Of a DNA stretch of 64,000 nucleotides, positions 2,011 to 56,646 are shown piece after piece. The stretch's first letter is position 1. Each line of letters begins with the position of its first letter. Source of the stretch: Leucoraja ocellata. Taxonomy: Eukaryota. The notes beneath the pieces are model-generated. The model made no database searches. It saw only the letters and a list, made by a program, of their open reading frames with translations, and was not told where the DNA came from. The stretch spans positions 6,510,001-6,574,000 of the forward strand of contig JAWMAR010000008.1 of assembly GCA_036785375.1 (NCBI GenBank), read 5' to 3'. The translations under genes and the position numbers were made by a program.

Positions 2011-2150
2011 GTACACAAAAAAACTGAAGAAGGGTTTCGGCCCGAAACGTTGCCTATTTCCTTCGCTCCATAGATGCTGTTGCACCCGCTGAGTTTCTCC
2101 AGTTTTTTTGTGTACCTTCGATTTTCCAGCTTTTGCAGTTCCTTCTTGAA
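2011..2150 (+). mobile_element. Penelope-derived short insert with hammerhead motif and target duplication
   Basis: TSD aaccc(a/g)tttgaagta at 1999-2013 and 2149-2163; 16-bp inverted segment 2011-2026 vs 2100-2115; core CTGAAGA-A-GGGTT tc GGCCC-GAAAC-GTT at 2024-2051. Confidence 0.8.
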
Positions 2151-2169
2151 CCCGTTTGAAGTAGGTAGT

Positions 2170-2400
2170 TTCTAATCAGCGCAGATTCCTCAAGTGCTCA
2201 GTCATTCTCTCCTTTATTATAGATTCCAATAAATTCCTTGCAACAGATGTTGGTCTATAGATATAGAATTTCCAGGTCTGCCCATTTTTATCTTCGGGGA
2301 ATAATGAAATTATATTTGCAATTTTTTCATTTCAAAGCAACAATTTTTGAGTTATTGAAGGAATCTGAAATGTTAAAAAATAGGGTAGCAGGAACCCATT
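2170..2400 (-). mobile_element. Old CR1 RT fragment
   Basis: Reverse strand reads YRPTSVARNLLESIIKERMTEHL, a CR1 ORF2 motif. Confidence 0.6.
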
Positions 2401-2644
2401 TTCTAGATATGTTTTCTCATAAAATCCATCCAGTTCTTTAATATCCCCCAGTGAAGAAAATCCTTAACACCGAGTTATACCAAAATGCAGTGATACTGCA
2501 ATATCCTCTGTAATTCCCTTGGCCGGTCAAAGGATTTACAGAGGATATTAAATACTAACCTTGCTAGTGGAGCTAACGTCCCAGGAAATACAACAGTGAA
2601 AACCTTCAGTTGCAGAGAATGTTTAAATCTTTAATGCCAATTTC

Positions 2645-3022
2645 ATGGAGTCACAAACCAATACAGCATGGTCTTTTGGCGACTGAGCTATAGGTCAGTC
2701 ATCAAACATCTATCTATACTATTCCTTTCTGCATCTGCAGTTTCTTGTGTCTCTAATCCAAAACTAATTCCATTTTTACTCTCCCCACTTCCCATCAACT
2801 CCCCCCAGATTCTACCACTCTTCTGCAGACTACGGCCAATATGTAGTGGTGAATTAAATTACAACTTGTATGTCTTTGGGATGTGGGAGGACACTGGACC
2901 ACCTGGAGGAAACCCACACAGTCACAGGGAGAATGTGCAAACTCCACAGAGACAGCAGCTGAGGTCAAGATCAAACCTAGGTCACCGGAGCTGAGGGACA
3001 GCAGTTCTACTAACTCTGCTAC
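2645..3022 (-). mobile_element. tRNA-derived V-SINE (HE1-like), older subfamily
   Basis: Reverse strand: tRNA-like head, central ggagtttgcacattctccctgtgactgtgtgggtttcctcc core, CR1-like tail. Confidence 0.75.
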
Positions 3023-3583
3023 ACACTTTTTCTGATCATGTTTCCCTGAGAGCATTAATTTTAATGAATCCCTTTCCTTAATTTTTTAGTGGGTTTCTTG
3101 GAATATAATATCCTCTTCCGGTACAAAGAAGAATGACAGAAAACAAATTGTTCAAATGACGTGCAATTCATTTGTTTTTCTAAAAACAATGTTTTTTAGT
3201 AAAAAGCAACGATCAATTTTGAATGTATCATCAAATCTATCTTTGTATTTATATTCCACTGCATAGTGCAGAGAAAAATAGGCATTTATGTTCTGGGGGA
3301 CCAACATGAATATTGGCAAGGTGCTAGGAAAGCCTGTATCCCGGGAATGGTTTAAAAGGGTGATGCTCTAGTTTCAGTCATGAATTCTAACCCATAAAAC
3401 ATTGGTAGTGAATAGAAAATAAGTGTTGCACAAACTGTTTGCAAACAGGTGTAAGGACTTGTAATAAACTTGCCTACCCCACCCGGCCCAATTACTGCTG
3501 GTGATTACTTTATGGCCCTGGTGAGTAGTTTATCATTACTATTCCAAATATCTCGGTTGGTATTGAAATTAAATTGCACACAC

Positions 3584-3692
3584 CTTCATCCCAGCCTTCA
3601 GAGACTCCTGCCAGCTCATAATGCTTTTTCCGTAGTCCACCCAGACGCTCCCTCTCTTTCTGTAGCTGACTTTCCAGTTCTAGAACATGAAC
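3584..3692 (-). CDS. HIP1: HIP1 exon (~30), 109 nt: VHVLELESQLQKERERLGGLRKKHYELAGVSEGWDE(G)
   Basis: ccttgaag|GTT...G|gtgtgt; within ORF 3510..3698; the 3' boundary could alternatively read through to the stop at 3510. Confidence 0.9.
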
Positions 3693-4497
3693 CTTCAAGG
3701 TAGGGATAAAAACATAAAGATATTACACATTTACACTTTTATTTCACCCTGTCATAGAGTCATACAGCGTGGAAGTAGGCTCTTCAACCCAAGTTCCCAC
3801 ACTGACCAACATGTCCTATCTACATTAGCCCCACCTGCCTGCATTTGGGCCTTATCCCTGTCCTATCCATGTACCTGTCAAAATGTTTCTAAAAGTTATG
3901 ATAGTACCTGCCTCAACTACCTCCTCCGGCAGCTCGTTCCACGCACCCACTAACCATTCTTTGTGTTCTTGCAGAAGAACCTGTCTCAAAGTGAACTTTC
4001 AGCGACTTTACAGTTTTATAGTACAGATTAAAAACACAAATGAAGAGCATGAGAGGCTCACCAATCCCATTTTTTTCATCAGATCGCTTGTTCAACCTCT
4101 CAAGGAAAAACTCATAGAGAACATTATTACCATTACAATGGTAATCAAGCAAAAACTCCTGAGCATGCATCAATCTTGTTCTCTCCACTGACAGCAAAAC
4201 AGCTTTTGACCTGACAGAGAACTAACTATTCATTCTTTGTCTGATTCTCATCATGGGGTACAGCTTCTGATAAGCTGCAAGCTGTGGCTTCCAACTATCT
4301 CATTTATTAAAGAACATATTAACTCTAATTGGAATGCCAGCTTAATGTTTATTCCCCTAAATTGTACCCCTGCTACATGAACGATGCACTTAATTCAAGG
4401 GAACTGGAAGATATAATCAGCCAAACGCTTTATCTTTTTCATCACCAAGAAACAATGGAAAAAAGCAGAGAGCCATGCAATGATAGTTTTACAATAC

Positions 4498-4559
4498 CTG
4501 CGAATCCATTTCCTGTCGCTTGATTTGTGTCAGTGTCATGCTGGAGAAATCCATTGTAT
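4498..4559 (-). CDS. HIP1: HIP1 exon (~29), 62 nt: TMDFSSMTLTQIKRQEMDSQ
   Basis: gttccag|AT...CAG|gtattg. Confidence 0.96.
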
Positions 4560-4832
4560 CTGGAACAAATCAATGAGAGTGGCAGAGCACGCATGAGGAA
4601 AAATAAAATCACCAACAGAATATACACAAGATGTGGTTCCTCATCTGCAATTTATCTTCTGCTACTAACAGAAGTATTTTTTTGCTGGATATAGTTCTGT
4701 GGGCAGTAGGCATGGTCCAATAATTTGCCCAAAAGCTCTTCCTTCCTATCAGCCTACACATAGAAACTGCACCACGTGGCCCAAATGCTACATCCAAACA
4801 AACGTGGAAAACCCAACAGCTGATCTGAGGGA

Positions 4833-4977
4833 AGATAGAGAAAAAAAGCTGGAGTAACTCAGCGCGACAGGCAGCATTTCTGGAGAGAAGGAATGGGTGA
4901 CGTTTCGGATCGAGACCCTTCCTCAGACTAGCATCTTCGGTTTAACTCAGCACCTGCAATTCCTTCCTGATCCTGAC
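4833..4977 (-). mobile_element. Penelope-derived short insert (inverted plus direct segment) with 17-bp TSD
   Basis: acagctgatctgaggga at 4816-4832 and 4978-4994; inserted into a Deu-domain SINE. Confidence 0.82.
4899..4926 (-). ncRNA. Minimal type I hammerhead ribozyme motif (intact core), sense to HIP1 pre-mRNA
   Basis: CTGAGGA-A-GGGTC tc GATCC-GAAAC-GTC; helix I only ~2 bp, activity unproven. Confidence 0.6.
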
Positions 4978-4979
4978 AC

Positions 4980-5180
4980 AGCTGATCTGAGGGAGTATTG
5001 CACTGGCAAGGAGCTGTCCTTCAGGGGAAACCTTTTCTGCTTTCTCACTCGGTGCAAAACCCACATTGCATAATTTTGAAGAACCGGGAAGCTCTTTCAG
5101 TGTTCTGGCTAATATGTAATCGTCAACCATGAACATTAAGAAATATCTGGCCACTAACTCATTACCATTTGGGAGCCCTT
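4980..5180 (+). mobile_element. Ancient Deu-domain SINE remnant (SacSINE1/AmnSINE1-related)
   Basis: ctgagggagtattgcactg...gaagaac.gggaagctct...gtgttctggctaatat...tatctggcca resembles the Deu domain as recalled. Confidence 0.55.
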
Positions 5181-5239
5181 AAATTACATTTCTCAGCTAG
5201 AATTTTTAAATTATGACAATGAATGTAGACTGTATCATG

Positions 5240-6406
5240 TTATTGAATTGAATTTAAATTAATAAAAATTTATTAGCCAAGTATGTATACGTACAGGGAA
5301 TTTGCCTTGGTGCTTTGCTCACAAAAGGATAAAAAAAAACATATACAGCAGACTATTAAAAATAAAACATTATAATTTAAACATGTGACGATAAAGTACA
5401 TACAAGTAAAGGAGTAAAAAGAGGCTACAGACTTTTGGCTGGTGAGTAGAGCTACTGCTCGTGGAAAAAAGCAGTTTTTATGTCTGCCTGTGGCAGCTTT
5501 GACAGTCCGGAGTCCCCTCCCAGAGGGAAGTACTTCAAAGAGTTTGTGGCCAGGGTGAGAGGGATCAGAAATGATCTTATCCGCTCGCTTCCTGGCCCTT
5601 GCAGTGTTCAGTTCGTCAATGGGGGAAAGGTTGCAGCCAACAGCTTTCTCGGCTGATCGAACGGTGCGCTGAAGCCTCCGGATGTCATGCTTGGTGGCTG
5701 AGCCAAACCAGACCATGATGGAGAAGATGAGGACAGACTCTATGATGGTAGTGTAAAACTGGACCATCATTGCCTGTGGCAGGTTGTATTTCCTCAGCTG
5801 CCAGGAAGTACATCCTCTCTTGGTACTTTTTGACTGTGGAGTCGATGGTGGCTTCCCATTTAAGATCCCTGGAGATTATGGTTCCGAGGAACTTAAATGA
5901 CTCCATAATTGTGACTGTAGTGTTGTTGATGATGAATGGGAGGCAGGGAAGTCTGCCGTTAATTCCACTGTCTTAAGAGCATTGAGCTCCAGGTTGGTGC
6001 GATGGCACCAGGACGCCAGATATGTCACTTTCTGTCTGTAGGCAGATATCCCCCAATCCTGGATCAGTCCAATAAGGGTTGTTTCATCCGCAAAATTAAA
6101 AACCTTGACAGAGGAATCTGTGGAGGTGCAGTCGTTGGTGTAGAGAGTAAAGGGGAGATTACGCAGCCTTGCGGTGCTCCTATGCCGAGGGTCAGCGGAT
6201 CAGAGATGTACTTTCCCAGCCTCACATGCTGCTTCCTGTGTGTCAGGAAGTTGGTGATCCACTGACAGTGGGGTTCAGGCACGGTCAGCTGGGAGCATTT
6301 GGAGTGTAGTAGCTCTGGCACAATGGTGTTGAATGCAGAGCTAAAATCCACAAACAGAATATTTGCATAGGTACCCCGGCGATCTAGGTGCTGGATGATG
6401 AAGTGC
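5240..6406 (-). mobile_element. Rex1/Babar-clade LINE, 5'-truncated, frameshifted RT
   Basis: ORFs 6064..6435 (ILFVDFSSAFNTIVP...GAPQGCVISPLL), 5685..5906 (FKFLGTIISRDLKW) and 5273..5770 (DPSHPGHKLF..LPSGR); short-repeat tail near 5240. Confidence 0.9.
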
Positions 6407-6689
6407 CCAAAGGGTTTGGGACATCTTGGGTTCATGAAAGGAATTAGATAATAAATTCAACCCTTTATAAAAAAGAATAATGCCATCAGATGCAGGAACA
6501 CTGAATGATTTTCCACACCTTGGCCCAGGGATTGGAGACCAACTGAAGTCCACTTACAGTCATTCAGTCCCAACTACAGATAGAACCTGGAACCTTATGC
6601 CTTTTAAAGCACATCACTTTAAAAAATCAAACGTGTTTGAAGCTATAAACCTTAAGTATCTGGTAATTTTTATGGTTAAATACTTATCC

Positions 6690-7278
6690 CCGGGAGCCGC
6701 CGAACAAACGGGGTGCCGATAACTGGAGCGACGACCGACAACCAGAACGCCCCCCTGGTTGGCCCGACTCACCCCACAGGCCTCTCACGGCACTGCGGAG
6801 AAGCCGGGCGGCGAGGCCTGCCTGGGTCAAAGGAGCCTCAGTGGCGATGGCAGACTCGGCGGCGGCAGCAGAAGACTCGGCTGCAGCTTGAGCCTCAACG
6901 GCAACAGGAGCCTCAGCGGTGATGAGGCCTCAGCGACACGGGAGCCTCGGCGGCAGTGGGAGCCTCGGTAGCGGTGGAACGTGTGAGGAGGGGGCGGGGA
7001 AGACAATGGGGACCCGGCGTGGGGGGACCACCTTGAGGGACGGTGGGAGAACAAAGGGGGACCCTGGTGTGGGGGGAGGGGCGCACTCTGGTTTAGAATC
7101 CTCTGCCCAGGGGATAAGCCTGCATTCATTTGTTTGTTCGTTCCGGTTCATTCCGGTGAAGGCGCTGTGCACATGGCAGCCAGCCAACAGTCGCTTGTCC
7201 TTTTCGGTTGTTTTTTCACTTTTAATTTCAAGTTTTTGTGTACCTTGTGTGTTGTGACTGTCGGCAATTACAATTTGG
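6690..7278 (+). mobile_element. GC-rich non-autonomous retroposon with internal ~18-bp tandem repeat and Rex1-like 3' end
   Basis: Degenerate ggagcctcggcggcagtg units at ~6830-6978; 3' end matches the tail of the Rex1 copy at ~11375-11425. Confidence 0.6.
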
Positions 7279-8856
7279 AAGAGCTGGTCATAACAAAACA
7301 CTTCTTCTAAGATTTTCAATCATCTTATTATTCTCCTGAAATGACCCAACTCCCATGACTGTTCGGTAACGGACATTCTGTGCACCCTACTCCATAAAGA
7401 ACAAAAAGCCAACGGCCAATTATTCTGTTTCTGGTGATATTAAGGAGGCTCTGTTCATCAACATATCTTTTTCCAATCATATCCATATCTTTTAACATCC
7501 CATCTAAACCACATTTCTGGGAGATAAGGCCGCTGTTTTATCTTAACGGAAATGTTTCCAACCAAATAAAATATTGTGTGAAAATTTACTTCTAAATTAC
7601 AGGTCAAGAATAGGAGGATGAATGCACAATCCTCTAACTCCAGACAAAGAGGAATGCTTTACAACGGTCACAAATGATAGCGCTTGCAAACTCGACAACA
7701 GCCTTTTCAGTATCGAAGTGAGGTAAAACGCTGATTGAAGATCTTTCAGGAATGGTAGATTTCCTCCTGATATTACGTGGGAAAGATTGTTGCCAACTAC
7801 AAAACCATCGCTCAACATGAGGAAAGGGAAGTTGCTACATTAAAGATAACCAAGTGTCACAGGGTGGTACTTCCACCAACTTCCACTTGGTGACCGTTTT
7901 GCTGCTACTATTTGAAATATTCAGTCATTCTGATGAATTATAAAAATTCATAAAATACTCCAAATGTTGCCAGAGATTGTTAATATGATGTAATTTGTGA
8001 CTTTTAACTATGTATTAAAATTTCCAGCTAAAAGTGTACAATTTGCCACAGACTCTGCTTTTCCAGGATGATTCCGTTAGCATGCATCCCAATCCGCATC
8101 AATGAAAAAGCAACACACTCAAGAAACAGAACATTCTGGAAAAGCTCAACAAGTCAAGAAGCTGCTGCGGAGATAGAAACACACAAATAATTCAGGTCAA
8201 GGACCCTTGGTCAGAATACTGGTGAAGAACAAGTCGTTCCTCTGTTCCCCAGATGAGATAACTTTCCAATGTCCAAATTTTAATTGCCATTACTACTCGG
8301 GAATGTCAGAGTGAAAGAACTTACGTAGTCGCTGATAGTAAAAACAAATCTTCCAGTCGTTATTTCCAGTCCTTTATTGAAGTAGTAATACAGATAACAA
8401 GTGAATATACCTGATCCTCTTAATTCTTATACAAGCTGTAACTTTTTGTTCTTACTGTGTTGTGTGATAAGAACTGTTGTCTCTTCAATCCCCCAGGCTA
8501 ATCTGATCTGACCACTCCCTGTGGCTTCACTAGCCTCCTCAGATGTAGACACACCCATCTACGTATCAAAATCCCTCCCCCAAGCATACAAAAATTATAC
8601 AGCTAGAAATATCCAAACAAAATACTAACAGTATCTAACTTAAGCATGAATGGCTCCTACAAGAGATTTGGAGGGCTAGTTGTATTTCTATCCCCACAGA
8701 TATTGCCAGATTTACTGAATATGTCCATGTTTCCAGTGTCTGCAGTATTTTGCTATTAGGTTGTATAGAATGGATATATCCACCTCCCGCAACACATCTC
8801 ACCATCCACCCCTTTATATTCTTTCAGGTTCATACATAATGTCAAAAGTGATCTAC

Positions 8857-8980
8857 CTTTCTCCTCAATCTGGGACTTTCCCGATTTGGTGGAAGCCACT
8901 ACTTTGGCTGTGGCTTCGTTAACACCCTTGGACGCTTCCCGCAGCCTTCCAAGGTTACAGTTGTCTTTATCTGCTTTTAC
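8857..8980 (-). CDS. HIP1: HIP1 exon (~28), 124 nt: VKADKDNCNLGRLREASKGVNEATAKVVASTKSGKSQIEEK(D)
   Basis: ttttgtag|GTA...G|gtagat. Confidence 0.96.
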
Positions 8981-9247
8981 CTACAAAAGAAGGCGGCACA
9001 AGTATAAGTTTCTCAAGAGCAAGAGGGCAATCAGGGAAAGAGTGGGTCCCTCTCAGGAACAAAGGGATAATCTATGTGTGGAGGCAGGTGCAGCGCGCAG
9101 GTCCAAAATGAATAGCTCTCATCTGTATTCAACAAGGGGAAAGATGCAAAAGTGAGAGTTCAAGGAGGGGTATTGCGATCAACTGGATCATGCCAATATA
9201 GCGGTATTGTATGTCTCGAACATGGGTGAATAAACATGATGACTTAC

Positions 9248-9353
9248 CTTGGAGGCAGCAACCAGTTGTGCTGTACTGGCTGCAATCTCATGAGAACACA
9301 CCATTAACTCTTCAAACTTCCCCTTTCCCTGGACAACCAAGTCTGCAGCATCC
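9248..9353 (-). CDS. HIP1: HIP1 exon (~27), 106 nt: DAADLVVQGKGKFEELMVCSHEIAASTAQLVAASK
   Basis: tattcag|G...AAG|gtaagt. Confidence 0.97.
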
Positions 9354-9454
9354 CTGAATAGACACATGGAAGAATGCTAGTTAGGCTCCAGACCATCCAT
9401 CAAATCTCAACACTGCTAAATAAACTAGAGTAAGAATATAATTTACTAACACAA

Positions 9455-10095
9455 GCTCTATACTGAGATTTACGAGAATGTTGCCAGGACTTGACAGTCT
9501 GAGCTATAGGGAGAGGTTGGGCAGGCTAGGACTATATTCCTTGGAGTGCAAGAGGCTGAGAGGTGATCTTATAGAGGTGTAAAGATCATGAAAGTAGATA
9601 GAGTGAATGCATAGAATTTCTTACCCAGAGTAGAAACATAGAAATTAGGTGCAGGAGTAGGCCATTCGGCCCTTCGAGCCTGCACCGCCATTCAATATGA
9701 TCATGGCTGATCATCCAACTCAGTATCCCGTACCTGCCTTCTCTCCATACCCTCTGATCCCCTTGGCCACAAGGGCCACACCTAACTCCCTCTTAAATAT
9801 AGTAGGGGAATCAAGAACTAGAGGACATTGGTTAAATGTGAGAGGGGAAAGATTTAACAGGAACCCGAGTGGCAACATTTTCCACATGGAGGGTTGTGGG
9901 TGCATGGAACAAGAGGAGGTAGTTGAGGCTAGTACTCCAACAATATTTAAAAGACATTTGGACAGGCTCATGGATTGAAAAGATTTAGAGGGATAATGGC
10001 CAAACGTGGGCAGCTGGGACTAGTGTAGTGTGGCATATTAGTTTGCATGGGCAAGTTGGGCCGAAGAGCTTGTTTGTGTGATATAGGACTATAAC
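9455..10095 (+). mobile_element. CR1 3' fragment interrupted by a younger antisense CR1 3' end (9634-9800)
   Basis: Host reads ttacccagagtag|...|agtaggggaatcaagaac; insert begins with the reversed tail aaacatagaaattaggtgcagg. Confidence 0.85.
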
Positions 10096-10774
10096 TCTAT
10101 ATTAGGTAGACATGCATCAATGAAATCTACACCAAGGACTTAATCAGTAAATACACGTTCCAAAGTTGAATCACATAAGCTATAAAAGACATTATTGCCC
10201 AATAAAACCTCTTCTCATGCATATAAACTCCAGACTTTGATGGCCTGTATTATACAGTCAACCGATGGGTCTACAGCTGACCTCTAGCTGCCCGCAAACA
10301 TCAAGTGTTCACTGTGAGGTGGATTTCCCCTTTCCTGACAGTTTGTTTCAGCTAGGTCTCGGGATCTGTGGCATACAGTGACCATGATGTCAAGGTTAGC
10401 TATGTATCCAGTCACATTAAAGAGTTATGAACCTTTGCATAATGGGAAAAAAACACAATTTCTAGATAATTAGACATAACCCAAAAGTTTCAAATGGAAG
10501 CTACAAACGGCTGACAGTGAAGGAGTATTGATTCCCTGACAGTAACTTCAGGATTTATCAATTAAACTGTACATGTGGAAATCCCAAAACTCCTGTCTGG
10601 TGCACAATACAATGATAAAGCATGATGACCGTTACACTGCCATTAAATTGGCATATTTCAGGCAATCACATACTCAATATCTTGATAATATTGATTAAAC
10701 GTGTAACAGACACTACTAACAGCTTCATTTTTTGTTCTGTGATATGACCTAATGCTTTGAAATCACAAGATGTT

Positions 10775-11452
10775 GAGTGGCGTGGGCTGAATCACCTGCA
10801 ACTCATTAGGAGGAGAGGGACACCCCTGTCCCCTGTCTCCATCAATGGTGTGGATGTGCACTTTACCAAGGAGTACAAATATCTTGGAGTGTACCTGAAC
10901 AGCAACCTGGACTGGCCCAGGAACGCTGAGTTGCTGTACCAGAGGGGACAGAGCCGGCTGTACTTTTTGAGAAGGCTCCGCTCCTTCAATGTCTGCAGTA
11001 AAATGCTGCATATGTTCTACCACTCGGTGGTAGCCAGTGCCATCTTCTTCGTTGCCGTGTCCTTGATCAGCAGGGCGAAGGATCAAGAAACTCATCAGGA
11101 AGGCTGGCTCTGTCTTGGGGGCAGAGTTGGATTCATGTAAGGTGGTCTTGGAGGGGACGATGCTCCTCAAACTGCAGAGCATCTTGGACAATACAGCTCA
11201 CTCCCTCTATGACACACTGGTCAACTTGAGGAGTACCTTCAGCAACAGACTGGTTCGATCAAGATGCAGTACACAACACCATGGGAGACCCTTCTTCCCT
11301 GTGACTATCAGACTAACTCCATTTCTCCTTCCCCCCACCCCAATCTTTACATATCCCCGACCCTTCCCACTCGTCACTTTAATTTCATGTATCTTGTGTT
11401 TTATGACTGTTGGCAGATCAATTTCCCTCCTGGGATAAATAAAGTTCTATCG
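10775..11452 (+). mobile_element. Rex1/Babar-clade LINE 3' fragment
   Basis: ORF 10757..11140 (EYKYLGVYLNSNLDW..N...L.QRGQSRLYFLRRLRSFNV); ends with aataaataaagttctatc. Confidence 0.9.
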
Positions 11453-11934
11453 TTTTGCATGTAAACTACTGATTCCATGCGCTTGCTTAGTTCACATCTC
11501 TTTATTTCCTTTTCCTTCTGACTATTCTACTTCTATTCTATTCCACTGACAGAGCTTCTGCGCCACAGCTTTATTCTTACAACTATTTACTCTAATTTTA
11601 ACTATAAAATGTTTTTCTTGCTGTGTCCTATTTTACTTGCATCTATGTTTGTTGTATATTTGTTGGCCCCTTAACTATTTGATCCTATCGCACGCTTCTA
11701 TAATTTTAAACACCTCCGTTAAATGATTGTATGATGTTCTACTTTAATGAAAATGTAGTGCGCGTTTTCTTCCTTCGTGGCACATAAGCATTGGCAGCAT
11801 CATAGTAAATCTGCTTTAAACTTTATTAACACAGCATTCAGTCATTCTGTCATATAATGATGAGCCCAAAATGGCTTGGTTAAGCTTTGTACTGATTAAC
11901 CACTGCATCACTGCAACCACTGCACTGATTAACC

Positions 11935-12405
11935 AAGGGTACAGAGAAGATTTAAGGAAGTTGCCAGCAGGGCTAGAGGGTCTGAGCTATAGGGAGAGAT
12001 TGAGCAGGCTGGGACTATTCCTTGGAGCGCAGAGGGATGAGGGGTGATCTTATTGAGGTGTATAAAATCATGAGAGGAATAGATCGGGTAGATGCACAGT
12101 CTCTTCCCCAGAGTAGGTGAATCGAGGACCAGAAGTCATAGGTTTAAGATGAAGGGGAATAGATTTAATAGGAATCTGAGAGATAACCTTTTCATACAAA
12201 GGGTGGTGAGTGTATGGAACAAGCTGTCAGAGGAGGTAGATGAAGCAGGAACTATCCTATGGATTTAAGAAACAGTTAGACGTACATGGATAGGACAGGT
12301 TGGAGGGATATGGATCAAACGCAGGCGGGGGGACTAGTGGAGCTGGGACATGTTGGTCAGTGTGGGTAAGTTGGGCTGAATGGGCCTGTTTCCACTATCT
12401 CATAG
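11935..12405 (+). mobile_element. CR1 (HER1-like) 3' fragment
   Basis: LEGLSYRERLSRLGLFLG...RGDLIEVYKIMRGIDRVD plus conserved 3' UTR. Confidence 0.88.
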
Positions 12406-12919
12406 AATCCCTTAGATTCTATATGAACCTAATATTTCATTACATTTGTTGTGGCCTTACTTACATGAGCTGCTTTGTTTAATCTATCATTCTCCTTTTC
12501 CACATCAACAAACATATTCAGTGCTCATTTTTATCTTGAAAATAAATGAATGAATGACACAGATATCAAATCTTTGCCCATCCATCACTGCAACATCCTT
12601 GGTCCTTTGAAAAAGTTATCAACCTTCCTCTTTTCTTACAAATGTGTGGAGCACACCGATAGCCCAATGTCTCTATCTTAATGAACATCCCCAGTTCCAG
12701 AAACTGCTGTCACTTGCAATCTTTTGAGAAACTGCCTGCAACTTTGATGCTATCTTTCCTCCTTTTAATATGGATTACATGTCAGCAGATACGATTTGGT
12801 CTTGCTATCATGTTCGGCACAGATATTGAGGGCTGAAGAGTCTTTTCTTATGCTGTACTGTACTGCTCTTTGCTTAATCTGAAAACAAGAACAGTATTTG
12901 TAGCAGTGTAACTGTTTCG

Positions 12920-13078
12920 GAAAGAACTGCAGGTGCTGGTTTAAATCGAAGGTCGAAAACAAAATGGTGGAGTAACTCAGCGGGACAGGCAGCATCTCTG
13001 GAGAGAAGGAATGGGTGATGTTTCTAGTAGAGACCCTTCTTCAGTACCGCTGAGCTATTCCAGCATTTTGTGTCTACC
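12920..13078 (-). mobile_element. Penelope-derived short insert with inverted segment and TSD
   Basis: gcag(t/g)gtaactgtt at 12903-12916 and 13079-13092; degenerate hammerhead; inverted piece at ~13047-13078. Confidence 0.8.
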
Positions 13079-36806: not shown

Positions 36807-36943
36807 ATGATTTTCTAAACAGCATTATGGGTGTTCCCCAGCAGATGGCGCATGAATTGCAGAAATCAAGCAAAACGTTTTGCCTATTTAAATTTTATAG
36901 AAATGAAATCTTCAAGCAGTTATTCTGAATTATGAACCCAAAA

Positions 36944-45555: not shown

Positions 45556-46386
45556 TCTATGTGAACAACCATCATTTCATGCCCAGATAACCTGACTGTG
45601 GTTGAATAAACGAGGGATAAAGATTGCACCTATTCCCTCCTCTCCTACAAAAAAGGGATGTGAACTGTTTATGTCCAACTAAGAGTGCACATAAGGTGTT
45701 GTTTTAATATTTTATCCAAAACACAGCTGCTTGGAGAATGCAGCACTCCCACAGTACTACACTAAAGCGTTAACGTAGACATTTGGGGGTAAGTAGAGAG
45801 AAATTTGGCTTTTTGGGGAAATCCAGGAGAAAGGGAAAAGTCTAAAGGTTATTGCCAAATCTATCAGTGGCAACATTAACATTCCACACATGGAATTCTT
45901 CTACACGTAGCAAATAATGCTCGGGCTGGGATTGGACCAGGAACATAGGAGTAGAATTAGGCCATTCAGCCCATCAAGTCTACTCCGCCAGTCAATCACA
46001 GCTGATCTATTTTTCCCTCTCAACCCTATTGTCCTGCCTTCTCCCCATAACCTTTAACACTCTTCGAGATTGGGAGATTTTGTTGAGGGATGTGGGAAGA
46101 AGTTGGCTTTGTGGCTTTAGGTCACAGGTCAATCATGATCCTACTGAATGGCAAACCAGGCTCAAAGACTAAATGGCCTCATATTTTTCTGCAGTGAACT
46201 CTGAATTAATAACCTTCATATTCAGAGTGAAGAGTGCTACCAACTAAGCTTTGGATATCAATCAATGTATAATTTTACACACCTATAGCTATTTCAAAGT
46301 TGTAACAGTTTTCAACCGTCATATGTGTGCTAGGCACTCAATTTTGCCATGCTGTAAAATAAGGCTGGTGTTCTGGAGGGACTCAC

Positions 46387-46475
46387 CTTTCGGAGCAAAT
46401 CTGCATGGTTTTGAACCAGTTCAGTGTACTTCTCCTTCAACTTTGTATACCTTTGTTCATTAGCTTGAGCTTTTC
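46387..46475 (-). CDS. HIP1: HIP1 exon (~15), 89 nt: KAQANEQRYTKLKEKYTELVQNHADLLRK
   Basis: ctcccag|GA...AAG|gtgagt; the DLLRKN clathrin-light-chain motif spans the next junction. Confidence 0.96.
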
Positions 46476-47242
46476 CTGGGAGATGAAAAGAAACAAAAAA
46501 CTAAATCATCCCATCTCAAATTTGTCACTGAGGTTAGTATTTTTGAAGCATCAAATTGTTTAAATGTAGTCAACGAAGCATAGTTCTTCACTGGCTGTAG
46601 ACAAAAATCAAGTGGGCAGCAAGGTGTATGGTGCAACCCTGAACTGATCCATTGATCTGACACAGGTGGGTGCGACCAACCATAATTTGCCTTTGTAACA
46701 AAAACGAAACATCGGTCGCCACCAATCGCAATTACTATTTCAGGGCCCCACTGGAAAATGTGCTTGTGTGAACGTTAGGGAAGTTGGAGCACAATATAGT
46801 AGGGAGTTTCCCCACAGAGAAGCAGCCACTAGTTGCACTCTGATGGAAGAGTTACTGCTTTCTGAAGCGGATGTAAACATTTCTGAAAGGGATTCTGTAA
46901 TTCTTTGATAACGTGGAACGCTTTCTCCAAGTTTCAGATCCCAATTAAAAAATGAACTCTGAAGAGATGCGAAAGTGACCAAAGTGATCATCATTGAACC
47001 ACACACAGCATCTTAAAGTGTGAAGAGACACCCAGAAGGTGGGTTCAGAGATCAAATCTGATTATACATACTGGATGAAAACAGTGATCCCTGGTTGACT
47101 GGTTAAGACCATCACTAAATTCAATCAGATTGTATTTTTAACCGTTCATTACATCGACAGAGGCATGGCAGTCAGACAAAATCACCACCATGCATTTGCA
47201 GGAACTAATCTCATCAGGTTGGAATGCGAATTTGGAACTTAC

Positions 47243-47426
47243 GTTCGATTTCTGTGAGGCTCCTCTGGGCTTTCTCCGTGACATCCTGCTTCTTTTTCAC
47301 CTCCTCGAGTTCAGCCTTCACAAACTCATTCTCATCCAAAGCCTGCTGTTTCAGGTGTTGCTGCTCGGCAAGCTCAGCCTCCAACTCATTGATGCGTCCC
47401 CTCAGCTGTAAGATCAGGCGTTTGCT
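47243..47426 (-). CDS. HIP1: HIP1 exon (~14), 184 nt: SKRLILQLRGRINELEAELAEQQHLKQQALDENEFVKAELEEVKKKQDVTEKAQRSLTEIE(R)
   Basis: cttcag|AGC...C|gtaagt; within ORF 47214..47546; coiled coil. Confidence 0.95.
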
Positions 47427-48903
47427 CTGAAGTGAGAGGAGCATAGAGGGATTCAGGACCTCCGGTTTTAACATGTAGAAATCAAACATGCAAAACAAGG
47501 CAGACCCAAAGTAACAGCAGAGAAGCTGTAAGCTGTTGGTTGGCACACACCTGCAAAAAGTCCGAAGATAGGTTATTTTTAAAATTAACAGTGTGCCTTT
47601 GCTGAAATGAGTAACTAATAAATTTAGGTTGAAAAAAGCCTGTAGGTTATAGAAGAAGGGGGCAATAGAGAGACGAGGTAATACTGGAGATTGAGGAGAG
47701 CAAATTGGAATAGAAGAATTAGAATCTGGTAAATAGTAAGTTGGACTGTTTATGGAACACGTTCAAAAGATAAAATAAAGGGAAGAAGCTTCAGAGCGAG
47801 GGAACAAGTGAGCGAGACAGTAATGAGCAAGAGAATAGTATACAAATATATTCACACAAGTCAAAGACAAGATATAAAGGACGGTTCATTTTCATCACTT
47901 CCAGCCTTGTGCTAAAATTAGCTTTGCTTCTTATCACCATCAAACATACCTGATGCGCCTGGAACTACTAGCTAATAATCCCAAGCACAAATATTTCCAT
48001 ATTTGTAGCCAATATTCTCATTCACAACTGTGAAAAGTGGAATATTTGCTCCAAAGAGAGGCAGAGATCCAAGAGCTTCCCCTTCAATGTCTCAGAAAAA
48101 TCCTTGGAGTTACTTGGGACCAACAGATCATCAACAAGGTGTTGGTTAAAAGAACCAACATGGAATTGCAGGCTTCAGTGGCTGGGCTATCTGGAGTGTG
48201 GGAGTCAAGTTCATAAGCCAAAGGGCATGAACTAAGGCCTGCTCAGAACAACTGGCAGCAGACAGAAAGCCTAAAACTCAGACATGAAATTCAACCTTCT
48301 CACCGACATGGTTGAACCGCGCCCACAAAACTTAGTTCGGCGAAGCTGGGTCAAGATCACGGGAGCTATTTTGGAGAGTTACTAATGTATAGCTTGCATA
48401 ACCAATCTGAGCTTGATGGAACTCAACAACATACGTCAGGTTCAGGTAAAGGCCCATCAAAAACCACCAAAGTTACATGTCCTTGGGCAGGTCGAGCTCA
48501 TTATAACTTAGCATGCTAAAGTACAGTACTGTGGTACATGATAGGGCTGCCTACCCACAAACAGCATGAGAGTCTTTGTGGCACAGGAGCTTCTATTCCT
48601 TGACAAACAGATTCCCCTGTTAAGTTTGGTTACCCAACCCAAGCACCGCAACTATCCACGCAAGGTCAGGTATCGAAAAGATTCTCAAGCCCTTGGGCTT
48701 CAACTAACTGTGGCGAGGTCAGTTTCTGGTCAAGTTTTCTGGTCTGGTGTCAGGGGTTACAGGGGGAAGGCAGGGGAATGGGGTTAAGTGGGAAAGATAA
48801 ATCAGCCATGATTGAATGGTGGAGTAGACTTGATGGACTGAATGGTCTAATCCTGCTCCTATCACATGTGCTTTATCCCCGAGTGGACAGTACACAAGGG
48901 AGA

Positions 48904-49066
48904 TAGACACAAAATGTTGGAGTAACTCAACGGGACAGGCAGCATCACTGAAGTCCGACGAGGGGTCTCGACCCGAAACGTCACCCATTCCTTCTCTCCA
49001 GAGTTGCTGCCTGTCCCAATGAGTTACTCCAACATCTTCGGTGTAAACCAGCATCGACAGTTTCTT
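48904..49066 (+). mobile_element. Penelope-derived short insert with inverted 5' segment and perfect 15-bp TSD
   Basis: agtacacaagggaga at 48889-48903 and 49067-49081; hammerhead variant CCGACGA...GAAACGTC at 48955-48982. Confidence 0.85.
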
Positions 49067-50222
49067 AGTACACAAGGGAGACCAGGCCCAGACCCACTGC
49101 TTGACCATCAAACTGACCATCACTGCCCAACACCCCCTACTGACAGTATGATGTGTTTCCTTGTTGAACACATTTTGTTGGACAATTGTTGGACAAAATT
49201 GTTGGACAATTTTCAAACTGGCTTGATTTCAATGCTTAATAGGTCAGTTAAAATGGCAGACAGTCTCAAAACTAATCAAATGCTATTATTTCCACAAAAT
49301 TACTACCCTTTAGGCACAAATGCTCCGTCCAGATGATGACCACATACGAATAAACTAACCCTATAATTATACTGCTGGAAGCTTTCCACAGTCCAAGTCA
49401 CACAGTATGAAAACAGCATTGACCCGAATGACATAATTGCAGCGACAGGCAGTCAAATTATCTGATTATAGTAGTTTCCAGGAACCACAGTCCCTTTATT
49501 CATGGGTTCATTCAGGACTTGAAGGAAAATAATAGCTCCTGACATAGACTTAAGCCAGCTCCTAGTTCACATAAACTTGGAGCACCATGCAATGCTGCTT
49601 GCTTTAGATTGAGCTGGCAATGAGCGGCAGCAGATAGGATGATGGGAACAACATTCTGGCTGCATCAAGCATGGGACCTGTCGGGTAGACAGGAGCAGAG
49701 TTACTGCTGCCAAGATTGCTGGTTATCTATACTCTAGCCAAACAATTTCTTTCAGCCAGGTCCAAGGCAGAGTCGTCCATGGGGAGGCCAACACCCAAGC
49801 TCATCAGCACGTGCAGTACAGGGTTTTTCGCAGTGCAAAAGGTTCACTGTGCTGATAGAGCAGGTTTGAAATCAGGTGAGGCCTGTACACAAGACTCGAT
49901 CGGCAACTTAAAACTAACTTGTTTTCTCACATTCCATTTCTGAAAGGACAATAAATTTGTTTATTTTTCCACACACCTCCCGACCTGCTGAGTCTTTCTA
50001 GCATTTTGTTTTTATGGCAGGCAGGTTGAAAAAGGCCAAAGATTGCAAATGCACACTGGCCATGATCTTAGTGAATGTCATCTGTCACTATCACTGGAAT
50101 CAGTTTTTATGAGAACTTGTGGCATAATTCTAAGTTGGAACTGTTGATCAACAGGTAAATCATTTCGTTTACCCAAATGTATGGTGTAACTATTACACCA
50201 GCAGAGTAAAAAGGCAACTCAC

Positions 50223-50295
50223 CTCTGCTTTAAAACTCGCCAACTCATCCTTCAGAGCTGCAATCTCCTTGTAGAGTTGGTCAATCAACTTATCC
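50223..50295 (-). CDS. HIP1: HIP1 exon (~13), 73 nt: DKLIDQLYKEIAALKDELASFKAE
   Basis: tttccag|G...GAG|gtgagt. Confidence 0.93.
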
Positions 50296-50920
50296 CTGGA
50301 AATAAACAGATTTATGAGAGCGTGTACATAATGAGTACATTTTACTCCTAAAATCTACTATGAGTCAATTGGCAGGAGACAAGTATGGATGTTAGCAGCC
50401 AAGAGAACTAGAATTGCCACAGGATAAATCAAGCTTACTTTATGATTGGACCTTTCTCTTTCTGATACCACCAACTCACAATGGACACACAGCAACATTT
50501 CCCCACTGGAATCTTGCCATTCTTTACTTTTCTGCAGGAGTCACTGTCTGGCAGTGAGGTATTGCAAGCTGTTCTGAACTTTGCCCTCTGAACAAAGATT
50601 ACTTACGCTAATGGCAGCCATCTGCTCAATTTGGATCAACGAACATGTTGCAAACCTTGAATAGAATTTAAAGTTTATTCCCACCTGGAAAGTTTTGGAA
50701 TAGCTCCTTTTTTTTGTCTAAGCCTCATTAGTATGCATCAAAAAAATTAAATATCCAAGGGTCAACTCCAGAATGATTTCTGCCATTTGCCCGTGTATTT
50801 AAAACATGAAGACTCACTCTATGAAGCCCCACAATTACCAACTGGATATCAACTGGAGGTATTCATCACCAATTATCGAACACATTTATTCCAAAATTCA
50901 AGTTAGATCAATACCCTTAC

Positions 50921-51018
50921 CTTTCATCCTTCGACATTCCATTCTGATTATTAAAATTGAATGGGTCAGTGGGGCCAGTACTTCCAAAGAGGTCATCAAA
51001 TTTATTCTCAAATAAATT
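50921..51018 (-). CDS. HIP1: HIP1 exon (~12), 98 nt: NLFENKFDDLFGSTGPTDPFNFNNQNGMSKDE(R) (AP-2 FxDxF and DPF motifs)
   Basis: cttgcag|AAT...AG|gtaagg. Confidence 0.95.
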
Positions 51019-54000
51019 CTGCAAGGAAGAAGGTTAAAACTTGTTAAAGGCAACCACAGTTACTGATCCACTCGCACCAGTAAATCATGAAGACCAACCT
51101 AAGAGTAGAAGGCAGAAGTTACATGTCTGTTCAGAAATACACATGATGATCATTCACTGTAAGAAGAACACAAGAACGGAGGAACATCATTCTGTTGAAG
51201 CCTGCCCTCCCATTAAATATGATCTATGGCTGATCTAAGCAAAAGAAGAAAAGCAATAGGGACATTGGAACAAAGTCAGCCAAAGAAATTCCTAACAACT
51301 CCTGTCCAACAATTTTGATTTTCATGCTGTTATGGTCCAATTTCCCAAAAAATTCCTTCCTTTGAGGAAGTCACTTACCCCTGAATAGGTGACTTCATCC
51401 AGTTACTAAATCAACAACCATTCTCTTTTCATGCTGCACATCCATTATGAGCCAACGTGTTCTCAGTACTGCAGGAATTATAGCTGTACCTGATCATATC
51501 CATTCATTCATATACATCCATATCTTCTGAGAAAGATCATTAATGTAGCGGAAACCCTGGCTGCATTTGTTTTCTGCTCCATCCCAGTGGCACTTTGCCA
51601 ACCTAACATGTTTCCTAACATCGCACAATGGCCAAATGCAGCATGGAATTAAAAAACTCAAACAAGATTTATCACCTGCCCAAGAAAGGATCAATTTCAC
51701 AGTGGATCATACGCAAACAAATTGAGACTCAAACAAATGAAAAAGTTGCAGAGGTGATAGAAAACACCAACATTTTACCCACAGCAAATAAAAGATATAC
51801 AACCTACTTAAGGATGGACAGAAATGTATGAAAACAGATGGTGGAATCTATTAAGAATAAACAGCAACAGTGCTCATGCAAGATGATATTCATAGCACAT
51901 TTAGTGAGGTTCATCATCCCAAAGCCCTTTGTACAAATGTAACCAGGATATGGCACCCAGCCACAAAAGGACATAAGGAGAAGTGACTAAAAGCTCGATC
52001 TAATTTAATTGTAAAGAAACATCACAAAGGAAGAGAGAAGAGAGGTTCAGGTCAGAAATTCCATAACTTAGGTCCTGGGTAGCTGAAGGAACTACATAAA
52101 TAATGAAAGACGATCTGTTAGCAGAACAGCTGGTAGTGGAATGACTGTGACGGGAAGAGAAAGCCTGCAAAGTTAAAAGCCCGTACGCACAGAAAGTGAT
52201 AAAATCCAATCCACTGAAGCAAAACACAGATAAATGGTCACAAAGAAGAAGCTGGGACTGCAAGGTGGAAGTGGGCAGGACACTGGTGAAGGCAGATTTA
52301 TGAGCAAGTTAAACAGCAGAGCTGAGAGTCTGGAATCTCCTGTCATTATTATAATGCTGGCATTAAATCAAAACTGATACCAGAATTTAGGCCCTTTTAA
52401 GACCAATCTACCAACCACTGTGAAAGAACAGCAAATCATTCTTCAGAAAAGGCTGAATTTGCTCACCACTCTTGCTTCCTGAATAACAGAAGCAGATGGA
52501 GTTACTCTGATGAGACAATGGTGTAAATTTCTAGTCACGACTCAGCTCCTGAAACAGTTACACATGGAATACTAAAGATTCCGCGTTAGTTCTGATGAAA
52601 ATGCAGCGCCTCTATTGAATGCAGTTAATAATCCTTCAAATCTCTTCAGCAAAGCTGGGTATAAAGCCATTCAGAGTGAAATCAATTATCACCATGGTAA
52701 CAATTCCACTTCTGTCTCAGTGCCTCTTCTGTGCATTAATCCTTTCTACTGCACAGTGATAAAAAAAAATTCACATAGGAAAATAACTGATCATGTTCAC
52801 TTGCAAATTCTAGGTTTAATCACAGAAAATAACATACTCTATTATAGATGAGGCAATATCTGTCACGGCACTCTTCCCCCCCAATTTGGACACATTTTAT
52901 TCTCAACTGTTATCCAACAGTTCAGTAGTCCACATTTATTTTTAGTACAAACCGGGCAAACATTTTTACCATTACAAACTACATGCAGTTCCATTAGAAA
53001 TGAGACAAAACTCCAGTGTTTATTACATAAAGCTTGGCTTAGTTAGATAACTTCAGAATGATAAATAACTATTATTTATAATAATATATCTTTTATCTTT
53101 ATATATATAAAAAAAGATTTATTATCTATTATAACCACATTCTGGGTTTTCCCTAATATATATATATATATTAATTCTCAGAGTGACATTGATTGTTTTA
53201 CTTCGCTGATACTATGAAATGAATAACAGAGACAAAAATAATGTTGTAACCAGAGACAAAAAACTGAATTTCAAGCAATCTTTTCCAAGCTAACTGATCT
53301 GCTCATGCCATTCTACAATTCTCAGATTTAGTCTTCCATTTTTGGAATACCAGAGAATCAAAAATGGTCCCATTACACCCCAATTTTGATGAAGGGTCTT
53401 CAACCTAAAATACTCAGTTTATGTTTCCACGCCACTGCCTGATCTGCTGAGTATTACCAGTATTTTTATTTTTTATTTTGTAGCAGCTAAATCATAATTC
53501 AAATGCAGAAACTGTTCTATTTTAAAGCTGTGAAAAGTAGGGAATGAGGAAAAACCATTCCAAGTTGTTATTGGTCACACTAAAGATTACCATGCTATTG
53601 TGAACTGTATTGAGCATTTGACAAAATACCAGAATAATTTTATAGGTTTAACAAAAAAGATGCTTCTTGAAAAAACATATGAATGTTTTGGAAAGAATTA
53701 CGTAGAGAGACTCCGGGCTCTATTCTGCGAAAAGTAGAGTCTATTTATATGCCCTTTTAATGCAACAAAATTTCCCACAATATGGGACCAGGGCCGATGG
53801 CCAAAATTCTGATATGAGGCAGGCTTCAGAAGTATTTTATGGGAGGAAAGAGACTGAGTAGCAACCAGATATTGTTAGTTACATAAAGGAAGTGACAGAT
53901 CCTGACAGTTATCAAGAGTTTAATTTATGTTCCGATTGCAAATATGCAGCATTGAGCCATGCATCTTTCCCTTATTTAAAATGCAGAAAATGAAAAGCTG

Positions 54001-54634
54001 ATGATTTTGTGCTTGACAACGTAATTGACTTTAGATCAGGTTCAAAACCCATTTATATCCTGGAAGCTCAGAAATAGTCCAGCATTGTAGATTTTAAAAT
54101 ATTAATTCCTTTATTAGTTAAGCAACATAGAAAACTTTTTTGAACAGTTTACCCTCATTTTTCAAACTCTTTCCAGTTTTTGTGTTACATTCGTCCTCGT
54201 AGAATTGTACTTCAGCACATATTTATGTTTCTCTGGTAATAAATAATCAGATGACTTTATACTATTTAATGAAACAGAATGAGCTAATTGAACAGTTCAG
54301 CTAATTTACAGTGATGAATTAGAAAATAAATCTGATATTCTCCAATACCCGCAAAATCTTAAAACCACTGAAAATGTATTTGTCTATTTTCCTTCAGCAG
54401 ATCCTTTGATTCAACATATTCTACATCAAATGTTCATACCCAAATATCAAATAATGCTTTCTGGAGTTAGTGGTGGGAGGGAGAGCGAGTCAGGGTGGGA
54501 GGATTGGGAGGCGAAGGGTGGAAAATCGTCTTTAAAGGGAAATAAATTGCTCCTGACTATTCCATTTGACACCCGGATTCTATCCATGGCCATTCCGAGT
54601 ATTCTCCGGAAAAGATACTGAAATATTTGGAGAT

Positions 54635-54750
54635 TCAGAATGAAGAAGTGTCTCGACCCGAAACGTCACCTATTCCTTTCTCCAGAGATGCTGCGTGTCC
54701 CGCTGAGTTACGCCAGCTTTTTATGTCTATCTTTGGTTTAAACCAGCATT
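54635..54750 (+). mobile_element. Penelope-derived short insert
   Basis: tgaagaagtgtctcgacccgaaacgtcacc...ttaaaccagcat. Confidence 0.8.
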
Positions 54751-55347
54751 GTCTGGTACTGGTCAAATACAAATAACAAGGGTACAAGGATAATTATCCC
54801 CGTTTATGTCAGTTTACAACTTTGAAATAAATGGAAATTCTGAGGATGTCATCGCAGCTTCAAGATGCCCCAACAAGGAGAAACATAAATTCAAAATCTA
54901 TCACCCCTTATTGAACATACTGACAATAGTCTGAGAATAAAGCTCGACTCTTCCTGCTCAAGCCATGGGCGTAGCACAGGGGTACAAAATGAAAAGTAAA
55001 AATATCTAATTGGATATATGGGAGGAAAATATCTGGGAGGAAGAAAGAAGGAAAAGGATTGTTCTCTGCTCACAAACAAGATTTTTTGCAAACAGCCACT
55101 TTGGAGGTAAACAATCCATCAAAAGATTTAGCCAAGTGGAATCCATCCCACTACCTTCCTTTGATTTAATTGCCTTTTCGATATTCACTCTTACACTGAT
55201 GATGTATTGACATCCAGTGCATTTGCCAAACAGGGAATGAGACCAAGTGTATTGAAGCTGATACCGAGAAACACAGCAGCAGGTTTTATAAATCGGTTCC
55301 TGATCTCCTCGCTAAAATAAGTGCTCATTGAATATCTTGCGATGTAC

Positions 55348-55491
55348 CTGTTGGGATGATGGATCCATCTCAACCAATTCATCAGTTTCCACAACCGGCT
55401 CACTGTCAGGGGAGGTAGACTCGACAGGTATCACTACAACAGGGCTGACATGTTCAGACAGAGCTGAGGCCCGCAGGAAGTTTGGAGGATT
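55348..55491 (-). CDS. HIP1: HIP1 exon (~11), 144 nt: NPPNFLRASALSEHVSPVVVIPVESTSPDSEPVVETDELVEMDPSSQQ (clathrin box LVEMD)
   Basis: ttgcag|AAT...CAG|gtacat; within ORF 55312..55497. Confidence 0.95.
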
Positions 55492-55744
55492 CTGCAAGAT
55501 AAAGGAATAACCAATAGTCAGTTAAAGTATAATGCAAGTACACAGCAAATCATTCAACATATATTTGGGTTAATGCTTTGGGCGTGGACTGTTCAGCCTA
55601 CAGCTGAAATATCAACATTTCTTTGCTTATTTTTTTTTTGTTAGAAGTAAGTACAATAATGTGGTACCACAGTACCTAATACATATTGACTTCTTTGCTT
55701 ATAATAGTGTTTTTAGGAAGGAAATGAGTGGAACTTCAAGCAAA

Positions 55745-56250
55745 CTGTGGCACAGTGGCGCAGCGGTAAAATTGCTGCCTAACAGCGCCAGACACCCTGA
55801 TTCGATTATGACTACAGGTACTGTCTGTGCAGATTTTCTGTGCAGAATTCTCTGCCATAGAAGGCAGTGGAGGCCAATTCACTGGATGTTTTCAAGATTT
55901 AACTCTTAGGGCTAAGGGAATCAAGGGATATGGGGGAAAAAGCCAGAACGGGGTTCTGATTTTGGATTATCAGCCATGATCATATTGAATGGCGGTGCTG
56001 GCTCGAAGGGCCGAATGGCCTACTCCTGCACCTATTTTCTATATTTCTATGTTTGCACGTTCTCCCTGTGACCGCGTGGGTTTTCTCCGGTTGCTCCTGT
56101 TTCCTCCCACAGGTGTGCAGGTCTGTAGGTTAAGTGACTTCTGTAAATTGTCTCTTGTGTGTAGGTGAACGTTGATCAGCGTGGACTCTGTGAGCTGAAG
56201 GTCCTATTTCAACGCTCTACCTCTAAATTAAACTAAAATTAAATTAAACA
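55745..56250 (+). mobile_element. HE1-like V-SINE interrupted by a CR1 3' end (~55843-56050)
   Basis: Head ggcacagtggcgcagcggtaaaattgctgcc; resumes at gtttgcacgttctccctgtgaccgcg; (taaa)n-like tail. Confidence 0.85.
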
Positions 56251-56514
56251 AAGCATTTAAACATCTGATAATATCATTACACCAATTTGTAGGGTGATAT
56301 TATTTGGTACTTAAATGCATAATGTTTGAAAGAAATACAACTGCAAGGAATCTGAATGACTTCAAGGATAGTAGTACAAATTCATCATTTAAGTTGAGGC
56401 TTACGCCAAATATGCAAAATCTTCTCACTGTCTATTCAGAATTGTATCTGCAGCATTACAGTTTCAATTTTGTTTTGTTAACTACTGCCAAACAACCATC
56501 TTTATGTCCCCATC

Positions 56515-56646
56515 ATCAGTCTGAAGAAGCGTCTCGACCTGAAACGTCACCCATTCCTTCGCTCGATAGATGCTGGCTCACCCGCTGAGTTTCTCCAACT
56601 GTTTGTCTACCTTCGATTTTTCCAGCATCTGCAGTTCTTTTTTAAA
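56515..56646 (+). mobile_element. Penelope-derived short insert with hammerhead core (56521-56548) and TSD
   Basis: catctttatgt(t)ccccatc on both sides; CTGAAGA...GAAACGTC. Confidence 0.8.

Follow-up and report, generated by a model that had tools for sequence, protein, structure and literature searches.

Hammerhead-bearing short repeats in the introns of skate HIP1 read as 5'-truncated end-stubs of a Neptune-type Penelope-like retrotransposon

Minimal hammerhead ribozymes (min-HHRs) are carried by metazoan Penelope-like elements (PLEs), and among fish they have been reported in Xena, Poseidon and Neptune (PMC4209133). Endonuclease-bearing (EN+) PLEs of the Neptune/Nematis type are marked by a CX2-5CxxC linker between reverse transcriptase (RT) and endonuclease (PMC8557442), and inverted copies, one-ended tails, solo pseudo-long terminal repeats (pLTRs) and target duplications are already published for EN+ elements (PMC3846280). 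To explain what the PLE hammerhead does and where partial tandems come from, circles have been proposed (PMC4209133), while cutting proved unnecessary in vitro (PMC11167929). Here we analyse a 64,000-nt stretch of the skate Leucoraja ocellata (assembly GCA_036785375.1, contig JAWMAR010000008.1, positions 6,510,001 to 6,574,000; hereafter the window), in which the gene HIP1, on the minus strand, hosts a dispersed family of hammerhead-bearing short repeats. The family is real, with about 17 pieces in the window and end-stubs of about 95-135 nt. We find that these repeats are 5'-truncated stubs of a Neptune-type PLE, decaying neutrally in HIP1 introns, and that they likely form by priming at two start sites followed by run-off of uncut RNA.

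The hammerhead proposed in the initial annotation is confirmed as the published minimal type I PLE hammerhead, with a palindromic helix III. A descriptor comprising the core, a helix II of at least 4 bp, GAAA, a paired 15.2-16.2 and UH matched the window only at 4926 (-), 23535 (-), 29914 (-) and 2024 (+). In a sample of 28 gene bodies (1,301,916 bases, anchored on HIP1, ITPR/RyR-type, dynein and myosin exons) it matched 42 times, against 0, 0, 0, 0 and 2 in five shuffles; an Rfam search returned no hammerhead family at E<=5. Helix II proved to be 4 bp with a 4-nt loop instead of the suggested 5 bp, because a fifth pair would leave a loop of 2 nt. Three window cores had been called intact, of which the one at 4899-4926 passes every criterion while the other two fail: in 23508 the first pair of helix I is a U.U, and in 29887 a G.U replaces G10.1-C11.1. 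Helix I is indeed about 2 bp, its two pairs being formed in 86% of 222 and 90% of 217 copies, but this does not mark the decay that had been suspected: 2 bp is the consensus of every lineage, the intact young one included, and helix I of Drosophila virilis Penelope is likewise 2 bp (PMC4209133). An extended helix I was ruled out, as pairs 3 and 4 form in just 8% and 6% of copies. Covariation was limited to one-sided U-A/U.G changes (II.4: 165 vs 28 of 218; I.1: 144 vs 46 of 222), and no two-sided compensatory change in helices I and II was seen among the sampled copies. All lineage consensuses share the conserved core, the extra nucleotide at 9/10.1, G10.1-C11.1 and the palindromic helix III.

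The suspected link to a PLE also stood. A GIY-YIG remnant directly precedes one window copy; it reads as a frameshifted endonuclease end, although the Pfam GIY-YIG match is just E=0.09, and a genome search with it gave 119,572 first-look candidates. Longer copies carry the RT and a C-X4-C-X2-C linker. Early searches for full-length copies met only truncated or segmentally duplicated ones, and an N-terminus query then found whole ones, many of them open over about 1,233 codons, as well as tandems repeating every 3,946 nt. The full unit of 3,946 nt runs from the endonuclease end through a pyrimidine-rich untranslated region (UTR), the hammerhead, a tail and about 35 nt to the ATG; the hammerhead lies about 165 nt upstream of this ATG. 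Two copies fetched whole (L281 and L282) encode 1,221 amino acids (aa) from the Met, with open reading frames (ORFs) 99.4% identical; against Pfam this ORF gives RVT_1 at E=1.9e-6 and GIY-YIG at E=0.013, both under the Pfam cut-off, and 342 database relatives with RT(+GIY-YIG) reach identities up to 53-57%. L282 is flanked by a target duplication of about 12 bp and its two repeats differ at 1/512 nt. The intact ORFs, their identity, the duplication and the near-identical repeats indicate a young family that is probably still mobile. Together with the other EN+ PLE traits present (a single ORF with RT and C-terminal GIY-YIG, partial-tandem pLTRs, an inverted 5' copy and a one-ended tail), these sequences identify the repeats as end-stubs of a putative Neptune-type PLE, a label taken from the CX4CxxC linker and not from an RT tree.

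Copies fall into four lineages by UTR and six sequence clusters (4-28% divergence), with the core common to all. The intact young lineage, seen in L281, L282 and G000:C300:1139677-1147808, is marked by a long spacer rich in proline and by tandem arrays that repeat the 3,946-nt unit perfectly. Elsewhere, internal deletions fuse the ORF start straight to the 3' UTR (C368, 89365-89560, and C35, 7814-7960, in block coordinates), possibly giving non-autonomous derivatives, and in L262-L280, L195, L208 and L209 element copies have been multiplied dozens of times within larger segmental or satellite repeats. In the 28 gene bodies nhmmer found 456 matches, or 438 without overlaps (0.34 per kb). Extrapolated to the 3.44-Gb assembly this is about 1.1 million pieces, a figure that counts the arms of pairs separately and applies to an assembly apparently containing duplicated haplotypes. 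An exact 32-nt core occurs 12,191 times assembly-wide (control 0).

The junctions of the stubs carry most of the information on their origin. Counting positions from C3 of the hammerhead core (=0), which puts the predicted cut between +27 and +28, we computed the hazard of 5' ends on 396 copies reaching +80. Ends were concentrated just before the core, with 146 of 247 copies at risk ending at -7..+1 (6.6% per nt), compared with 11/341 around the cut site (+25..+30; 0.5% per nt) and 52/393 at +31..+60. An origin of the stubs from cut RNA was thus ruled out, the rate at the cut site being background, and the pile-up before the core without one at the cut indicates that the stub template was uncut RNA. 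The edge was alike with and without a tail (28/66 vs 46/88, p=0.58), so that it is set by position and not, as we also considered, by cDNA length. Target duplications of at least 10 bp flanked 22/70 single-arm stubs (controls 4/140). At the other end, 3' ends fell into two groups near +90 and +130. Opposite-strand neighbours were nearly always head-to-head (87, vs 2 tail-to-tail), and among head-to-head pairs 64 had one tail, 23 none and 0 both (11.8 expected). We read the two 3' end classes and this one-tail rule as two-strand priming, one site for each strand. A pair just left of the window (L070:380-578) has a sense arm that spans roughly +90 to +200, reaching into the ORF start, and hints at a rarer downstream start site.

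Full-length copies behave differently at the same edge. In 20 full-length loci taken from the listed N-terminal matches, the upstream hammerhead is kept in 14, all of which continue past it to ends scattered from -41 to beyond -1,987; of the others, one hybrid (L284) ends near -13 and five end at +60, +80, +89, +163 and +215. The young lineage (at least 90% identity) has 12 stubs, 8 long copies and 3 others among 23 first-pass copies, and against these the 0/14 full-length starts at the stub edge differ at p=0.0002 (p=0.0015 with hybrid L284 counted as short). Older loci, about four of them independent, show the same contrast. Since full-length copies read through the edge, the sequence alone does not block synthesis there.

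These results suggest a model in which the element's enzyme would prime at two start sites, about 90 and 130 nt past the hammerhead, and the cDNA would run off the 5' end of an uncut linear RNA just before the ribozyme, leaving a stub. Both target strands would be primed, one from each start site, by analogy with the anole PAc enzyme, and long partial-tandem copies would have a second, endless template of their own: a circle made by the hammerhead or a tandem read-through RNA. An initiator-like (Inr-like) TCAGT lies at the stub edge, and we tentatively propose that a real RNA 5' end is located there and that the stubs derive from RNA starting at it.

Several observations weigh against run-off. 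The model draws on genomic DNA, and its 20 full-length loci were chosen by hand among the 150 N-terminal matches listed, 18 of them for long open frames. The edge is ragged over about 8 nt, and no clear cap-derived G was found among the 35 non-consensus bases before the -3 A (13 G). An RNA from -5 spanning the 3' start site would give full-length starts at -5; with 0/14 observed, the model needs the extra assumption that the linear RNA ends before that site. In addition, the junctions of inverted pairs fall on palindromes, and these could define the edge with no RNA end involved. Contigs from four runs guessed to be RNA have loose ends at -2 (459, 262, 128 and 57 contigs); as the reference carries a mismatch at -3 and contigs cannot show RNA ends, these were not used as evidence.

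The strongest competitor to run-off places the edge in the joining step, where cDNA would be trimmed to, or annealed at, palindromes fronting the hammerhead domain, and complexes past that phase would no longer stop. This would account for the raggedness and, on a second pass, for the 0/14 full-length starts at the edge. It would also suit the head-to-head junctions, which gather at -5/-5, where they overlap by 8 nt, and at +10 inside helix II, and PMC3846280 describes palindromes at the 5' ends of pLTRs and inverted junctions. It sits less easily with the partnerless single-arm copies, which pile up at the same edge (81/169 5' ends at -7..+1), and with predicted folds of 11 sequences (3 window copies and 8 fully intact ones) that were no stabler than shuffles (z from -1.8 to +1.2). 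We regard the joining-step explanation as a serious possibility short of probable, and lean, provisionally, towards run-off over it.

A more specific version of run-off invokes two RNA templates: stubs would be strong-stop-like cDNAs off the 5' end of a capped linear mRNA that lacks a 3' start site because of cutting by the 3' hammerhead, and the template of long or multi-unit copies would be a circle of 3,946 nt that the two terminal hammerheads produce. DNA alone cannot separate a circle (as in PMC4209133) from tandem read-through, and we consider this version doubtful. If true, the circular PLE intermediate, long proposed, would gain support from a genome, and from a vertebrate lineage in which intact copies survive.

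Alternatively, the stubs could be a self-propagating element resembling a short interspersed nuclear element (SINE), with an internal promoter and its own transcripts copied by the parent enzyme. Unit-like ends, target duplications, an enormous copy number and the Inr-like motif at the edge in 4/4 lineages would fit such an element, and an internal promoter of Inr and downstream promoter element (DPE) type is described in D. virilis Penelope (PMC2377424). Against this, long copies occur in all six clusters (9/23, 9/25, 26/93, 3/21, 9/53 and 6/37), leaving no stub-only lineage at K=6, though at K=8 one old cluster of 15 is without them, and carried-over flanks are absent among 118 upstream flanks. 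We judge a SINE-like origin improbable. Slightly lower still we place the idea that the edge is a 3' splice site or branch point, with stubs from spliced RNA or a splicing intermediate. All lineages do have a YAG after a long pyrimidine tract at -4..-2, and the D. virilis Penelope intron ends at the helix I 5' end (PMC4209133); however, the 118 flanks share no upstream exon, the one candidate spliced junction has 0 exact genomic matches, no GT..AG joint appears among 15 shown of 222 joints, and the GT before the ATG in lineage C is missing from the young lineage.

We also asked how the copies behave towards their host genes. In the 28 gene bodies, 289/438 copies cover the core, 137 in sense and 152 in antisense (p=0.41). 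Among 288 scored cores, helix II is intact in 26/136 sense and 26/152 antisense copies, and the suggested depletion of intact copies from sense introns was not seen (fully intact, 9/136 sense vs 8/152 antisense, p=0.80). Two limits temper this neutrality: the orientation test bars only a strong bias (sense share of helix-II-intact copies 26/52, confidence interval 0.36-0.64), and exons to either side fix the gene orientation in HIP1, three ITPR/RyR-type blocks and one myosin block, whereas the remaining blocks take theirs from anchor exons +/-10-35 kb. The data thereby exclude that cutting copies were strongly purged from sense introns, and are compatible with a weak purge. A pyrimidine tract with AG just past the cut (4878-4898 (-), and +30..+50 in all lineages) resembles a 3' splice acceptor, so that sense copies could be cryptic acceptors, yet they are not depleted.

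Conservation of the core relative to its flanks holds across lineages but shows no such excess after insertion. Relative to lineage consensus (lineages A and B; the 5' half is alignment-biased), non-CpG divergence was 33/655 (5.0%) in the core and 436/3636 (12.0%) in the 3' flank. Between the arms of one insertion (65/87 pairs) it was 23/227 (10.1%) in the core vs 381/2870 (13.3%) in the flank (p=0.22), and 32/157 (20%) in helix II. This contrast indicates selection on masters and not on copies; masters are likely the only elements in which the ribozyme is under selection, and there it would depend on a dimer and probably on the element's protein. In the 11 predicted folds the helix I pairing probability was near 0, the core purine run paired in most with a pyrimidine run past the cut, and cofolds of two copies gave pairings other than the double hammerhead. 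The monomer is accordingly modelled as inactive, its core sequestered, in agreement with inactive monomers (PMC4209133) and with the protein-assisted PAc hammerhead (PMC11167929). Sense bias and post-insertion conservation, expected of a domesticated intronic hammerhead, were both absent: the stubs decay neutrally in HIP1 introns with no sign of acting on the host gene, which fits the option, also raised initially, that they are tolerated as inactive. We therefore give almost no credence to the first proposal, in which sense cores that are intact would join into a dimeric ribozyme within HIP1 pre-mRNA and so cut or regulate this transcript. In its favour, a loose descriptor is passed by 3/7 sense vs 0/6 antisense intronic window cores (p ~0.19, by hand), and weak cutting in vitro is known for min-HHR dimers and trimers (PMC4209133). 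Against it, a single core is fully intact, the three named cores are separated by 6.4 and 18.6 kb and occupy different introns, the 28 genes show no bias, decay is neutral, helix I is predicted not to pair in 11/11 folds, and the PAc hammerhead needs its protein to cut (PMC11167929).

The window copies are listed below. The HIP1 exon at 47235-47426 matches HIP1 of Amblyraja radiata at 100% identity, and Pfam places the exon for aa 484-520 at 30422-30532; no position in the window was found for the exon for aa 671-701. The HIP1 region is present again, inverted, 1.9 Mb off on the same contig (G000:C8:4646696-4656372; L002, L032) at about 98% identity; this, with many anchor genes found twice, suggests uncollapsed haplotypes. 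Much older core-bearing relatives with another helix II sequence, perhaps of other PLE families, lie at 31575-31640 (-), 31913-31950 (+) and 32288-32380 (+). Three further intronic stretches (44400-44672, 45228-45490 and 48034-48242) are, by their protein motifs, putative fragments of other elements of the LINE (long interspersed nuclear element) type.

Table 1. Repeat copies and host gene in the window (window coordinates).
Feature	Position	Strand	Remarks
Young-lineage (B) stub, short inverted arm and tail	2011..2150	+	core intact, helix I 5' strand missing; past last HIP1 coding exon, antisense; ~13-bp target duplication
Stub, core 4899-4926, sole fully intact core in window	4831..4958	-	inverted tail piece at 5' side; 16-bp target duplication; sense, HIP1 intron
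Head-to-head stub pair	12912..13078	-	one arm tailed; core broken
Head-to-head pair	20050..20274	.	two cores, both broken
Old stub	20820..20920	-	core broken
Stub, core 23508-23535	23444..23546	-	helix I broken (U.U)
5'-truncated long copy, core 29887-29914	29823..30380	-	frameshifted GIY-YIG end (30020-30380), pyrimidine-rich UTR, G10.1.U11.1
Lineage D copy, endonuclease end and long UTR	35453..35794	+	core broken; antisense
Degenerate 3' piece	36116..36208	+	without core
Very short head-to-head pair	38689..38783	.	without core
Stub with tail	40209..40339	-	core broken
Head-to-head pair	48896..49074	+	14-bp target duplication; core broken; main arm antisense
Stub	54635..54748	+	core broken; antisense
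Lineage C stub with tail	56508..56648	+	helix II broken; antisense
Old degenerate copy	56946..57103	+	antisense
HIP1 coding exons (aa 238-1037) and introns hosting copies	3585..63048	-	

As annotation this is ordinary, the ribozyme and the retroelement both being of known kinds and no effect on HIP1 having been seen, and its worth lies in the material it offers for testing: about 1 million junctions, a strict one-tail rule, a fixed stub edge bypassed by full-length copies, and a young intact lineage. We found no literature on the skate family, on a fixed stub edge or on a related strong-stop product, in a search that left most subscription papers and Repbase/Dfam uncovered, so the family may already be catalogued.

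Compared with the metazoan PLE min-HHRs of Cervera and de la Pena 2014 (PMC4209133), the skate motif has the same CUGANGA core, extra nucleotide before helix II, G10.1-C11.1 and loopless palindromic 15.2-16.2, and its copies are likewise mostly solo and dispersed, with opposite-strand pairs. It differs in a helix II of 4 bp against 6-8 bp, in a helix I matching D. virilis against 4-5 bp, and in abundance, the 12,191 perfect cores and about 1.1 million extrapolated pieces standing far above the ~4,000-9,000 reported for coelacanth and Xenopus. Non-LTR retrozymes (PMC7229834; preprint 10.64898/2026.07.22.740005) are similarly non-coding, PLE-related and equipped with a type I hammerhead, but they are described as head-to-tail tandems, mostly with canonical hammerheads, and as depleted in Xenopus introns, whereas skate stubs are solo or head-to-head and intron-dense; judged on the window copies, none of which forms a head-to-tail tandem, we rejected a retrozyme identity. 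The Anolis PAc Poseidon element (PMC11167929) shares two internal RT start sites bounding the tail, both-strand extension and an uncut RNA template. Its ORF begins inside helix II, unlike the skate ORF, which starts well downstream of the hammerhead, and the available part of that account describes no fixed 5' stub edge. With EN+ PLEs of the Neptune/Nematis type (PMC8557442, PMC3846280) the skate element shares the RT, the CX2-5CxxC linker, a C-terminal GIY-YIG with CCHH, partial tandems, an inverted 5' copy, an optional 30-40 nt tail at one end and target duplications; it stands apart in that its insertions are mostly stubs with a fixed 5' edge, and in an ORF of 1,221 aa with a long proline-rich spacer against ~890-930 aa in most full-length database relatives. 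By its sequence features, then, the skate family is a member of the EN+ PLEs that carries the PLE min-HHR motif.

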